Shown in pieces: positions 16,987 to 58,782 of a stretch of 64,000 bases of DNA. Numbering within the stretch: the stretch's first letter is position 1; each line of letters starts with the position of its first letter. Under the pieces are notes generated by a model, which was given only the letters and a program-made list of their open reading frames with translations, was not told the DNA's origin and made no database searches. A program made the translations under genes and the position numbers. This DNA is from a virus (taxonomy: Duplodnaviria; Heunggongvirae; Uroviricota; Caudoviricetes), in IMG/VR virus record IMGVR_UViG_2639762884_000001. One strand, written 5' to 3'.

Positions 16987-17133
16987 TTAACAGCCATTGA
17001 TTCTCGCCTAAAAATTCTAAGGCAGCACCTACCATTTAACCTTTACACCACAGCCGTAGGCATTTAGGCTATATCACATATAAGAAAACAAGTTGTTTCA
17101 GACGATAATTATATACGCAAAGGGAACTCTCCA

Positions 17134-17802
17134 ATGACCAAGATCTTTGTGGTTGGCGGCACAAAGGGCGGGCCTGGCAAATCCACCGTTGCCCAGCAAA
17201 TTGCCGTTTGCCTGAAAGTCAAAAAGAAGAAGAAGGTTTATATCACCGATATAGATATTCAGCGCACGACAACGAGCTGGTGTGAAGACCGTCGACAGAA
17301 CGAAGATCTTGAGCTGATTCCTTTTGCATACGTTCAAGATGACATCATTAAGCACCTAAAATCGCTTCAGGGTAGAGCTGAGTATGTAGTGGTAGATGCT
17401 GGTGGCTTTGACTCCGAAATTCAGCGACAAGCGATGCTGATGGCCGACGTTATCATTATCCCGCTGCGTCCTAAGCGTCGTGATTTGAAATCTTTACGTG
17501 ACATCGATCCTATTATCGACAATGTTCGCAATGTAAACGACAAAGTGAAAGTCCGCGCGGTCATGAACCAATGCCCGGCTTTGCCATCACAAGTGTCTCG
17601 CATTCTAGCGGCTAAAGAGATTGTCGAGACGTTTGGCATCGAGTCTGCGCCAGTCAATCTATATAACCGCAACGTCTATGATGATGCGGAAGAGTCTGGT
17701 CGTTCTATCTTTGAAATGACCGGTAGCGAGCGCGACAAAAAGGCGGAAGCCGAGTTTGAAGAATTTGTAGATTATCTGTTGAGTCTGGAGGAAGAAGAAT
17801 AA
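17134..17802 (+). CDS. parA: Partition ATPase ParA (type Ib, deviant Walker A)
   Basis: KIFVVGGTKGGPGKSTVA deviant Walker A (KGGxGKS/T); 222 aa without N-terminal HTH. Confidence 0.8.
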   Translation: MTKIFVVGGTKGGPGKSTVAQQIAVCLKVKKKKKVYITDIDIQRTTTSWCEDRRQNEDLELIPFAYVQDDIIKHLKSLQGRAEYVVVDAGGFDSEIQRQAMLMADVIIIPLRPKRRDLKSLRDIDPIIDNVRNVNDKVKVRAVMNQCPALPSQVSRILAAKEIVETFGIESAPVNLYNRNVYDDAEESGRSIFEMTGSERDKKAEAEFEEFVDYLLSLEEEE

Positions 17803-18161
17803 TGTCCATGAAAATGGGTGACCTAGCAAAGCGCAAAGAGCCTGATGCACCGGCTAAGAACACAACTCCTTTGCGCCAACCAATCAGACCACAGGGACGC
17901 CCGACTCGTGGCAAAGAGAAAATTAAAAGCCGCACGATGTCACTGGAAGACGAATACTTCGAACTGCTGGAGATGATGAAGTTCATCCCTCGCTTCGAGA
18001 AGTTCACCCGTTCTGACGTGATTCGCGCAGCCATTTTCCATCTGGCAGAGAAGTCACCGCAGGAAATCGAGGACATCGTGAAACTTAACGAGGCGATCAC
18101 TGCTGCCGATGTCACGATGCGTACCGATGAAATTAAACGCGAGTTAATGAAGAAAGGTTGA
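17802..18161 (+). CDS. Small centromere-binding partition protein (ParG/RHH-like)
   Basis: 119-aa ORF translationally coupled to parA (ATG overlaps the stop); basic disordered N-terminus and small helical C-terminal domain. Confidence 0.45.
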   Translation: MSMKMGDLAKRKEPDAPAKNTTPLRQPIRPQGRPTRGKEKIKSRTMSLEDEYFELLEMMKFIPRFEKFTRSDVIRAAIFHLAEKSPQEIEDIVKLNEAITAADVTMRTDEIKRELMKKG

Positions 18162-18170
18162 TATAAATCT

Positions 18171-18200
18171 CTAAGGCTGGTCTGCATTGGACAGCCTTAG
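18171..18200. terminator. Bidirectional hairpin between convergent genes
   Basis: Perfect 9-bp inverted repeat ctaaggctg / cagccttag with 12-nt loop, between the + strand partition genes and the minus-strand ORF ending at 18222. Confidence 0.45.
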
Positions 18201-18221
18201 AAATATTTCGTTCTATGAAAG

Positions 18222-56287: not shown

Positions 56288-56360
56288 TTTCATTGATAGG
56301 TAAGTGCTTATCTATTAACATGGGCCACTATATTTAGTGGCCCTCTTTATTTGGTGATAC

Positions 56361-58676
56361 ATGATAAGCATCGTAAAACGTAACGGCCAAACAGAGCCGT
56401 TATCCGAAGAAAAATACAACCGCGTCGTAATGTATGGCGTAGAAGGCATTCGTGGTGTAAGCGCATCCGCTGTAGCAATGGGAGCTGCGGCCAGCATTTT
56501 TGATGGGATTACCACCAGCCAGTTGCATGAGGCTTTGGTTAAATCTGCCGCTGATTTGATCTCACCAGAAGCACCAAATTACTCACAGGTGGCTGCCCGC
56601 CTGAACATTTTTAAAATCCGCAAAGATGCCTTCGGTCGTTACGACTATCCGAACTTCTACCAACACATTGTCAAGAACGTTAACAAGGGCGTTTATGACA
56701 AGGATTTGCTGACACATTATTCGTTTGAAGAGATCGAAGAACTCGGCAATTACATTAAGCCGAAACGTGACGATCTTTTTGGCTATGCAGCTACGGTGCA
56801 GTTGCAAAGCAAATACCTCGTTCAAAACCGTGTTACTGGTGAGATTCATGAGGGGCCGCAACATATCTATATGCTGGTAGGCATGTGTCTGTTCCAGAAT
56901 TGGGAAGACGACTGCGCTGGCAAAACACGTATGGAGATGGTCAAAGGTTTCTATGACGTTACAAGTACGTTCAAACTGTCTCTGCCCACACCAATCATGG
57001 CCGGCGTCCGTACTCCAACCCGTCAGTTCTCCAGTTGTGTGCTGATTGAGTCTGGCGATAGTCTGAAAGGGATTAGTGCAGCTTCAGCCGCAATTATCGA
57101 CTACGTTTCACGTCGTGCTGGAATTGGTATTGGTTTTGGCCGTATCCGTGCGCTGGGCAGCGAGATCCGCAATGGTGAAGCCACCCATACTGGAGTTATT
57201 CCATTCCTGAAGCATTTCCAGACGGCTGTTAAATCTTGTTCGCAAGGTGGTGTTCGTGGTGGCGCAGCAACAGCGTTTTACCCGATCTGGCATCTTGAAG
57301 TTGAAAGTCTGCTGGTGGTGAAAAATAACCGTGGTATTGATGAAAACCGCGTTCGCCATCTTGATTACGGCGTCATGAGTAACCGTCTAATGTACCGTCG
57401 ACTCGTCAGAAGCGAGAACATCACTCTGTTCAGCCCGCATGATGTGCCTGATATGTACGAAGCCTTCTTCACAGACCAGGAGCTGTTTGAAAAGCTGTAC
57501 CATAAATACGAAGCCGATGATTCAATTCGCAAGAAGTCAGTACCTGCCATTGAGCTGTTCTCATCTCTGATGCAGGAACGAGCGTCCACGGGCCGAATTT
57601 ATATTGCGAACGTCGATCATATTAATGAGCATGGCGCTTTCATTCCTGCTCTTGCACCTGTTCGCCAGTCAAACCTGTGTATGGAGATCACCCTACCCAC
57701 CCGTCCACTGGCATTTACCGACGACCCGAACGGTGAGATCGCGCTATGCACTTTATCCGCTTTTAACCTCGGAGCCATCCGTTCACTGGAGTCTCTTAAA
57801 GAGGTGGCGTTCTATGCCGTTGCTGCACTGGATTCGTTACTGGATTATCAAGACTATCCGATGGAGGCAGCCGAAGTGCCTGCCAAAGCTCGTCGTAGCT
57901 TGGGAATTGGTGTAACCAACTTTGCTTATTACCTGGCAAAGAATGGCGTTCGTTATTCTGATACCGCTGGCAATAAACTGGTGCATGAAACGTTCGAAGC
58001 TATCCAGTATTACCTTCTTGATGCCAGCTGCCGACTTGCTGAAGCAAAAGGTGAGTGTGACTGGTTTGAGCAGACCAAATACGCAATTGGTCAGTTGCCG
58101 ATCGACCATTACCGTTCTTCATTAGACGAAAGTGGCGAAACCAACTTTGAGTTAAAGATGCCGTGGGAAGAACTGCGTGAACGTATTGCAAAATACGGCC
58201 TTCGCAACTCCACTCTGACGGCACAAATGCCATGCGAGACTTCCAGCCAGATCACTAATTCCACCAACGGCATCGAACCGCCTCGTGGCCCGGTGTCAGT
58301 GAAATCTTCTAAGGACGGCATCGTCAAGATGGTCGTGCCTGAGTTTGAAAAACTGAAGGAACAGTATGAATACCTGTGGGATATGCCGGACAACCGCGGC
58401 TATCTGACAAAGGTGGCGATCATCCAGAAGTTCTTTGACCAGGCTATTTCAGCCAATACCAACTATGACCCTTCTCGCTTTGAAGGCGATAAAGTCCCAA
58501 TGATGACGCTACTGTCAGATTTGCTTCTCGCCTACAAGATGGGAGTTAAAACGCTTTACTACCACAACACCAGAGATGGTGCAGGAAAGCGTGATGACGA
58601 CGAACCGCAGAATCCACTGGCGCAAGCTGTAGCCGTCGAGCCAGAAGATGAGTGCGACGGAGCCTGCAAAATCTGA
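56361..58676 (+). CDS. nrdA: Ribonucleoside-diphosphate reductase alpha subunit (class Ia)
   Basis: Colinear near-identity to enterobacterial NrdA over long stretches (for example FKHFQTAVKSCSQGGVRGGAATAFYPIWHLEVESLLV and the C-terminal CxxGACKI tail). Confidence 0.95.
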   Translation: MISIVKRNGQTEPLSEEKYNRVVMYGVEGIRGVSASAVAMGAAASIFDGITTSQLHEALVKSAADLISPEAPNYSQVAARLNIFKIRKDAFGRYDYPNFYQHIVKNVNKGVYDKDLLTHYSFEEIEELGNYIKPKRDDLFGYAATVQLQSKYLVQNRVTGEIHEGPQHIYMLVGMCLFQNWEDDCAGKTRMEMVKGFYDVTSTFKLSLPTPIMAGVRTPTRQFSSCVLIESGDSLKGISAASAAIIDYVSRRAGIGIGFGRIRALGSEIRNGEATHTGVIPFLKHFQTAVKSCSQGGVRGGAATAFYPIWHLEVESLLVVKNNRGIDENRVRHLDYGVMSNRLMYRRLVRSENITLFSPHDVPDMYEAFFTDQELFEKLYHKYEADDSIRKKSVPAIELFSSLMQERASTGRIYIANVDHINEHGAFIPALAPVRQSNLCMEITLPTRPLAFTDDPNGEIALCTLSAFNLGAIRSLESLKEVAFYAVAALDSLLDYQDYPMEAAEVPAKARRSLGIGVTNFAYYLAKNGVRYSDTAGNKLVHETFEAIQYYLLDASCRLAEAKGECDWFEQTKYAIGQLPIDHYRSSLDESGETNFELKMPWEELRERIAKYGLRNSTLTAQMPCETSSQITNSTNGIEPPRGPVSVKSSKDGIVKMVVPEFEKLKEQYEYLWDMPDNRGYLTKVAIIQKFFDQAISANTNYDPSRFEGDKVPMMTLLSDLLLAYKMGVKTLYYHNTRDGAGKRDDDEPQNPLAQAVAVEPEDECDGACKI

Positions 58677-58681
58677 CATAT

Positions 58682-58714
58682 GGTGGGGGATATCCCCACC
58701 TTCTCTTTGATTTG
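58682..58714 (+). terminator. Hairpin after nrdA (possible attenuator/terminator)
   Basis: ggtgggg-gatat-ccccacc hairpin followed by a T-rich stretch. Confidence 0.35.
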
Positions 58715-58782
58715 TAAGCCTTGTTTAAACACATAAGATAACAACTTGTTTAAACGCACCAAAAAAGAAAAAGGAAAAACAC

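Follow-up and report, generated by a model that had tools for sequence, protein, structure and literature searches.

A recurrent intergenic palindrome as a probable repressor operator in SSU5-like phage-plasmids

What reads a short palindrome that recurs just ahead of scattered start codons in a phage-plasmid genome, and to what effect? The question is raised by a 64,000-nucleotide stretch of viral DNA (IMG/VR record IMGVR_UViG_2639762884_000001; hereafter the window), in which a preliminary description made from the sequence alone had noticed five copies of AAAACAA-N(1-2)-TTGTTT. We refer to this palindrome as class B, and to a second palindrome from the same description, (GA)TAAGTA-NN-TACTTA(TC), 14-18 bp long, as class A. 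Our analysis favors, with a probability of roughly 0.6, the reading that class B is the DNA operator of a symmetric phage-plasmid repressor with a regulon of about 20 transcription units.

Judged by its phage and plasmid matches, the window is part of an E. coli phage-plasmid of the SSU5/pHCM2/pMT1 type. Positions 33000-41000 are 96% identical to Escherichia phages PhiR41_1, CMS-2020a and Cyrano, 81% identical to Salmonella phage SSU5 and 98.6% identical to ~110-kb E. coli plasmids; about 749 plasmids from Klebsiella, Escherichia, Enterobacter, Yersinia and Salmonella match the same positions. For comparison we used the annotated Cyrano genome, SSU5, pMT1, a K. oxytoca variant and a distant Moellerella plasmid.

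A conserved palindrome ahead of a defined set of genes

Exact copies of AAAACAA-N(1-2)-TTGTTT occur three times in the window (17085-17098, 20321-20334 and 47300-47313), compared with 0.02 expected, and none of 100 shuffles reached three. With the core defined as 6+1+6 (AAACAA-N-TTGTTT), the spacer is 1 nt at every window site, and AAACAANTTGTTT is found with at most one mismatch at five sites (0.38 expected; 0 of 100 shuffles reached five), starting at 17086, 20322, 33732 (AAATAATTTGTTT), 47301 and 58739 (TAACAACTTGTTT). All five palindromes of the preliminary description are thereby recovered. They are all intergenic and lie 11-40 nt 5' of the start codons of parA (17134), a helicase gene (20354), a cobT-like gene (33764), an open reading frame (ORF) at 47330 and nrdB (58783).

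The class B element is 13-15 bp long and consists of two heptads. Its palindromic form held as first described, but the left arm of the site given as 33734 is degenerate and the trailing AAA is variable (TTGTTTcag at parA, TTGTTTtca at cobT). The preliminary description overlooked an AG(A) that is conserved on exactly one side, the promoter-proximal one, in 27 of 38 sites. This one-sided AG(A) adjoins an otherwise symmetric site.

The genome-wide scan called for in the preliminary description placed the motif far above chance. AACAA-N1-TTGTT ranks first or second among all 5+N+5 palindromes in both Cyrano and SSU5 (12-13 observed, 0.16-0.36 expected), and the other outlier of this count is TAAGT-N4-ACTTA. 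Classes A and B are thus distinct, as had been proposed: they are the two most over-represented palindromes of these genomes and stand ahead of different genes. At one mismatch or fewer, SSU5 has 20 class B sites and Cyrano has 18. At least 15 of the Cyrano sites are intergenic, against an intergenic share of 13% for the whole genome (p about 6e-14); the remaining three precede start codons that look misannotated. As a defined sequence, class B both recurs far beyond chance and is restricted to regulatory DNA.

The sites are conserved across genera. Of 38 distinct upstream variants of the helicase gene in IMG/VR, 37 span the site (L075, a truncated sequence, falls short of it). TAGAAAACAAnTTGTTTAA is kept in 36 of these, the exception being L082 with two mismatches in the core, while the flanks diverge on both sides and all four bases occur at the center. 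In 26 distinct IMG/VR variants of the parA region the block from the -35 element to TTGTTTCA is almost invariant, and the leader downstream of it varies. The orthologs of the cobT-like site are perfect in SSU5 (42729) and pMT1 (64267), the ORF 47330 site has orthologous copies in Cyrano, SSU5 and pMT1, and the nrdB site has them at Cyrano 70326 and SSU5 70219. The K. oxytoca variant carries the same sites, and pMT1 has a site at every orthologous place that it retains. Class B is therefore genome-wide and ancient within the lineage, its motif invariant in E. coli, Salmonella, Klebsiella and Yersinia with diverging flanks and a variable center base. The Moellerella relative has lost the class B palindrome and kept the ParG-like protein considered below, and its FljA-like protein is very diverged; as a test of co-variation it is ambiguous. 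Class A, unlike class B, is still present there.

Class B marks a defined set of transcription units, in agreement with the preliminary description, but the label of replication and nucleotide metabolism given to that set did not survive. Most sites precede other genes: in Cyrano a dozen lie at 80-98 kb ahead of small early genes of unknown function and two more stand ahead of terS, mostly outside the equivalent of the window, and parA has a site of its own. Moreover, nrdA and cobS, which belong to the same pathways as nrdB and cobT, carry the class A motif instead, so that the two classes alternate within pathways. The terS copies form a pair of palindromes 25 bp apart just 5' of the gene (Cyrano 57-100, contig L001; SSU5 56-95; pMT1 28564-28601), followed by a terminator-like hairpin (AGAGCGC..GCGCTCT) and a T-run; this is the conventional genome end, where the structural operon begins.

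Promoter geometry and expression in the lysogen

Class B has a fixed register with -10 elements. Oriented by AG(A), most sites face the gene and lie 12-14 nt 3' of a -10 hexamer, directly before the ribosome-binding site. In Cyrano and SSU5, extended -10 elements of the forms TGnGATAAT, TGnTATTAT and TGnGAAAAT (for example TGcGATAAT, TGgTATTAT and TGtGAAAAT) stand 12 nt 5' of forward sites. Several promoters have a second, inverted copy over the -35 element, 51 bp away center to center (Cyrano 93114/93165, SSU5 88319/88370 and SSU5 85602). These upstream inverted copies lie outside the transcript of the promoter, and it is chiefly for this reason that we take the element to be read at the DNA level. 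The inverted copy at 85602/85818 comes after a GC-rich hairpin located where the upstream gene ends, and this hairpin scores as a terminator solely in the minus-strand direction. Inverted copies read GGcAGAAAACAA on the bottom strand (Cyrano 85797-85830, 93114-93126 and 97190-97202; SSU5 85602, 87625 and 88319), and several abut a GC hairpin scored as a minus-strand terminator.

The window sites are all on the plus strand. At parA the palindrome AG-AAAACAA-G-TTGTTT (17083-17098; core 17086-17098, no mismatches) begins 14 nt past the -10 of a predicted promoter (17042-17070) made up of TTTACA (17042-17047), a 17-nt spacer and TAGGCT (17065-17070), an arrangement conserved in the variants. The helicase site (20319-20334, an exact match) lies in a 43-bp intercistronic gap ahead of a DnaB-like helicase gene, with a third AAACAA box at 20338-20343 adjoining the Shine-Dalgarno (SD) sequence. 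The degenerate palindrome GT-AAATAA-T-TTGTTT (33730-33744, from the one-mismatch scan) precedes the cobT-like, cobS-like and Pol III alpha genes and has a probable extended -10, TGcTACATT (33711-33719), 12 nt on its 5' side (TGaTAAATT in SSU5). Ahead of ORF 47330-47755 the palindrome (47298-47313, an exact match) follows a terminator hairpin at 47255-47274 and a candidate promoter, the two together spanning 47255-47293: the 3' arm of the hairpin contains a -35-like TTGGAC (47265-47270), which is followed after 17 nt by the -10 TATCTT (47288-47293). At nrdB the palindrome AGA-TAACAA-C-TTGTTT (58736-58751, from the one-mismatch scan) is accompanied by a candidate promoter recognized by inspection, TTTGTA (58711-58716), 17 nt, TAAGAT (58734-58739). 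The extra half-site reported near nrdB is real: TTGTTTAAA at 58721-58729, 25 bp 5' of the right arm of the palindrome, is conserved in SSU5.

A terminator scan placed intrinsic terminators just 5' of three window sites, at 16964-16981 (ending the unit upstream of parA), 47255-47274 and 58682-58700 (after nrdA), so parA, ORF 47330 and nrdB need promoters of their own. The -35 boxes at the window sites are poor, and a simple sigma-70 consensus scan of these sites did not find the promoters that we infer; transcription starts given here are predicted ones.

Expression data come from the 96%-identical relative Cyrano, for which RNA-sequencing values per gene in the LF82 lysogen are available (floor 5, median 9.8; S1 table of PMC9928086). 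Cyrano genes preceded by the palindrome have low values (terS 7, helicase 21, cobT 8, gene 58 6, nrdB 13 and early genes 7-25), and the exception among such units is the parA operon (parA 50, ParG-like gene 89, third gene 55) (PMC9928086). The minus-strand maintenance and lysogeny genes read 90-7000 (PMC9928086). With the parA operon excepted, the orthologs of the target genes are thus off in the prophage state, at 5-25 as against 90-7000 for lysogeny genes. That good extended -10 promoters are nearly silent at the RNA level fits transcriptional repression, although weak promoters would likewise give low RNA values.

The reading that we prefer is as follows. A symmetric protein encoded by the phage-plasmid, a dimer or a dimer of dimers, would bind AAACAA-n-TTGTTT at an operator located at about +6 to +20 of host sigma-70 promoters, some of which have the second inverted copy over the -35. 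The bound repressor would block RNA polymerase, and some 20 units would thereby be held very low in the plasmid prophage: partition, helicase, cobT-like/Pol III, nrdB, the small early genes and terS. The preliminary description had suggested a second regulator, and the symmetry, conservation and position of class B fit the binding site of one. That a protein binds here and represses by binding may be expected from these features, and candidates for that protein are considered in the next section.

Could the element be an RNA operator instead? A protein of the FljA family would then read the motif in 5' leaders, block ribosomes and destabilize the mRNA, in the way that FljA acts on fliC mRNA, in a translational regulon like that of RegA. 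As such a system would require, the element does encode a FljA-family protein, from a gene outside the window (Cyrano contig L003 780-1301, minus strand, CYRAN_114; SSU5_121; pMT1 34531-35058). It is a core gene product of the SSU5/pHCM2/pMT1 supercluster (831 plasmids), ~35-40% identical to true FljA. We nevertheless regard this explanation as improbable. An RNA-binding protein leaves the strict dyad symmetry of the DNA unexplained. Only forward copies lie in a leader beside the SD sequence; the inverted copies over the -35 are 5' of the transcript, and at 47299 and nrdB the predicted start falls inside the palindrome. In the lysogen, transcripts from strong extended -10 promoters barely exceed the floor. 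The fliC leader, taken from genome contigs, has in common with the motif only the 8-nt match CAAGTTGT; the match is confined to the center, and 4 of 12 core positions differ. The FljA-like protein may also be just cargo that represses host flagellin. As an RNA hairpin the palindrome has a stability of only -0.3 to -2.3 kcal/mol with non-significant folding z-scores, and half-site variants in Cyrano and SSU5 are never compensated in the opposite arm; on these grounds we rejected a structured RNA hairpin. In an Rfam scan only tRNAs reached the gathering score, and no family matched the palindrome.

A further suggestion is that class B, rather than a lysogeny operator, is a positive promoter element for a phage activator or sigma-like factor, or a target for shut-off in the lytic phase, for instance by the 71-aa winged-helix-like protein encoded at 27660-27875. 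The fixed register with the -10, the direction that the one-sided AG(A) gives to the site and the poor -35 boxes would all suit such an element, and the 27660-27875 protein is present alongside the motif and was not detected in Moellerella. However, the site lies 3' of the -10 and as close as 11 nt to the start codon, so that a start dependent on an activator would have no space. The annotation of the Cyrano genome lists neither an RNA polymerase nor a sigma gene, and in the lysogen the gene at 27660-27875 shows no expression (6.4), with a faint hint of a winged helix-turn-helix (HTH) in its product (E=0.18). A half-site spacing of 7-8 bp is, in addition, awkward for HTH dimers. We give this suggestion about one chance in ten.

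Candidate binding proteins

For the DNA operator, the leading candidate for the protein that binds it is the 119-aa product of 17802-18161 (plus strand), although we advance it tentatively and at well below even odds. The gene directly follows parA (17134-17802, plus strand), which encodes a 222-aa small ParA/MipZ-type ATPase without an N-terminal HTH (Pfam AAA_31, MipZ, CbiA, ParA and VirC1). The protein has a disordered Arg-rich N-terminal tail followed by ..KSRTMSLEDEYFELL.. and ..FTRSDVIRAAIFHLAE.., in which a strand-helix-helix pattern can be recognized by eye. Sequence comparison with Pfam and PDB gave no match, and the assignment as ribbon-helix-helix (RHH) is likewise by eye. The Cyrano counterpart, CYRAN_29, is annotated as a RelE/ParE toxin in the record. 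A ParG-like partition adaptor is more likely, to judge from the position after a small ParA, the basic disordered tail and the strand-helix-helix pattern.

Three considerations point to this protein. First, the heptads lie 7-8 bp apart center to center, which suits RHH proteins better than HTH dimers. Second, conservation of the protein is 90-100% where the motif is invariant: it is 96.9% identical to SSU5_034 and 89-100% identical in most of 797 plasmids. Third, the ParG-like gene is expressed in the LF82 lysogen, and of all units preceded by the palindrome its operon alone shows clear transcription there, as is required of the gene of an autoregulated repressor. A search for distant ParG-like homologs in unrelated replicons, with which the motif might co-travel, found none. 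In a stronger form of the proposal the adaptor would also be the master silencer of the lytic program, autoregulating parA and shutting early, replication and packaging promoters, while the dispersed sites would double as centromeres. We consider this form unlikely, at perhaps one chance in four or five.

Other candidates were rejected. The HTH pair upstream of cobT (32815-33201, minus strand, and 33453-33665, plus strand) is excluded because SSU5 lacks both genes and still keeps its 20 sites. The LexA-like S24 protein of Cyrano is UmuD-like and comes from a cargo gene (L002 39265-39700) that follows a canonical LexA box (TACTGTATGTGTATACAGTA) and is highly expressed in the lysogen; the cargo segment also contains a MinD/Mrp-like gene and a MetRS gene. 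The FljA-like protein has two tandem Sm/Hfq-like domains according to prediction and no palindrome at its own promoter, and was rejected as a DNA repressor; given the predicted fold, it was kept at the RNA level only. CYRAN_117 of Cyrano, RHH-like by eye and expressed in the lysogen, is 58% conserved with its putative reading strand altered, whereas the motif is invariant. Among host regulators, the consensus sites of KdgR, PhoP, DeoR and IHF do not, to our knowledge, fit in spacing.

The neighborhood of parA also invites the view that the palindromes are a dispersed centromere, that is, partition sites for ParA and the ParG-like protein with little or no role in gene control. A small ParA without HTH followed by a small basic protein is the gene order of type Ib partition systems, the parA promoter has a perfect copy of the palindrome, and the surroundings of the par genes contain no other repeat array. 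Separate sites have precedent in N15, which has four inverted-repeat sites (PMC7205306), and operator OF of TP228 doubles as centromere (PMC3130281). However, type Ib centromeres do not usually consist of single 13-bp sites. We did not find the repeat array that adjoins the par genes in such systems, the window having one palindrome only 5' of parA; the K. oxytoca variant has ~6 half-site boxes upstream of parA. The strict placement between -10 and SD at plus-strand genes and the pairing with the -35 would be superfluous for partition. In pMT1, moreover, the par module is replaced by a P1-type parAB, and every site is kept in the retained regions, although pMT1 is evolutionarily young. A purely centromeric role is accordingly very improbable in our estimation.

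That the palindrome is an unselected passenger of copied terminator-promoter-leader cassettes is hardly credible: many early-region sites do have 30-40 bp of similar flanks (TTTTCTgCCTTTT..TGnGATAATaACaCCAaCAAG), but the flanks of the window sites are unrelated, the palindrome is kept in all but one footprint variant while flanks and center base change, and it also occurs alone over -35 boxes and 5' of a minus-strand gene (SSU5 87941).

Neighboring elements, known systems and the biology of SSU5-like phage-plasmids

Class A palindromes lie in the window at 2962, 9885, 14106, 19543, 24807, 28323, 35891, 42633, 46157, 51613, 56297 and 61013, ahead of other plus-strand genes (tail genes, holin, cobS-like, SSB, sbcD, nrdA and thyX). 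At 56297-56350 the palindrome is followed by a GC-rich hairpin with a T-run (GGGCCACTATATTTAGTGGCCC TCTTTATTT) and then by the nrdA start codon, a layout that suggests attenuation or antitermination. A 53-bp near-perfect palindrome at 19401-19453, 5' of the ORF at 19561, has 26-nt arms (85% complementary) separated by 1 nt and a TAAGT/ACTTA center; among its conceivable roles are those of an origin, a centromere and a strong operator. Elsewhere in the window, 29087-29644 holds a cluster of four tRNA genes (Asn-GTT, Tyr-GTA, Thr-TGT and Ser-TGA), of which the Cyrano record has Asn, Thr and Ser only. The segment at 29830-31050 (minus strand) is low in GC (0.36, compared with 0.46), contains a 406-aa minus-strand ORF and looks like a variable cargo slot; the same slot in Cyrano is occupied by a different, extremely highly expressed 184-aa gene, CYRAN_43.

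The DNA operator would resemble in kind the dispersed C1 operators of P1. In that phage one repressor acts at ~15-20 scattered operators over replication, recombination and other lytic promoters, with no single immunity region. The present element is likewise a plasmid prophage with putative operators dispersed over the promoters of its genome. The C1 operators are asymmetric 17-mers, however, unlike the 13-15 bp dyad of two heptads described here, and no C1 homolog was seen in the element. The position of the palindrome, centered roughly at +11 to +15 of the predicted start with an auxiliary copy 51 bp upstream, recalls operators of the lac O1 type; the spacing of the half-sites is much shorter than for HTH tetramers, and looping is only putative.

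Partition proteins offer a second comparison. ParG of TP228 and omega of pSM19035 are RHH partition adaptors that also act as repressors. Omega governs several promoters, and the sites that it binds serve as centromeres too. ParG combines an RHH fold with a flexible tail, reads boxes spaced by 8 bp and has an operator that is also a centromere (PMC3130281). The window resembles these systems in several respects: next after a small ParA comes a small protein whose basic N-terminal tail is flexible, the boxes are ~7-8 bp apart, and a putative operator lies at the par promoter. Their sites, by contrast, are arrays of 4-10 boxes beside the par genes, whereas single palindromes stand here at ~20 unrelated promoters, and the RHH fold of the window protein is putative. 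N15 SopB provides a phage-plasmid precedent for single-palindrome sites at separate positions (PMC7205306), but that system is of type Ia, with a large HTH-containing ParB and only four sites, which are 16-bp GC-rich palindromes. FljA-fliC and T4 RegA resemble the present case in that the target lies between transcription start and SD of many early and replication genes and that the element has a gene for a FljA-family Sm-like protein. Translational operators are not, however, known to be palindromic in DNA, and the copies over the -35 cannot act in RNA.

We found no account in the searchable literature of the class B motif, nor of how SSU5-like phage-plasmids silence their lytic genes. The group includes pMT1 of Yersinia pestis, pHCM2 of Salmonella Typhi and hundreds of plasmids of E. 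coli, Klebsiella and Enterobacter, and some members carry resistance genes. An operator with a mapped regulon gives a handle for the hunt for the repressor, for induction reporters, for predicting which genes fire first, and for engineering or curing these elements. If the protein that binds it is the partition adaptor, plasmid inheritance would be compactly coupled to phage development. If that adaptor is moreover the silencer of the lytic program, a single protein would read out both segregation and the lysis-lysogeny decision across the pHCM2/pMT1/SSU5 supercluster.

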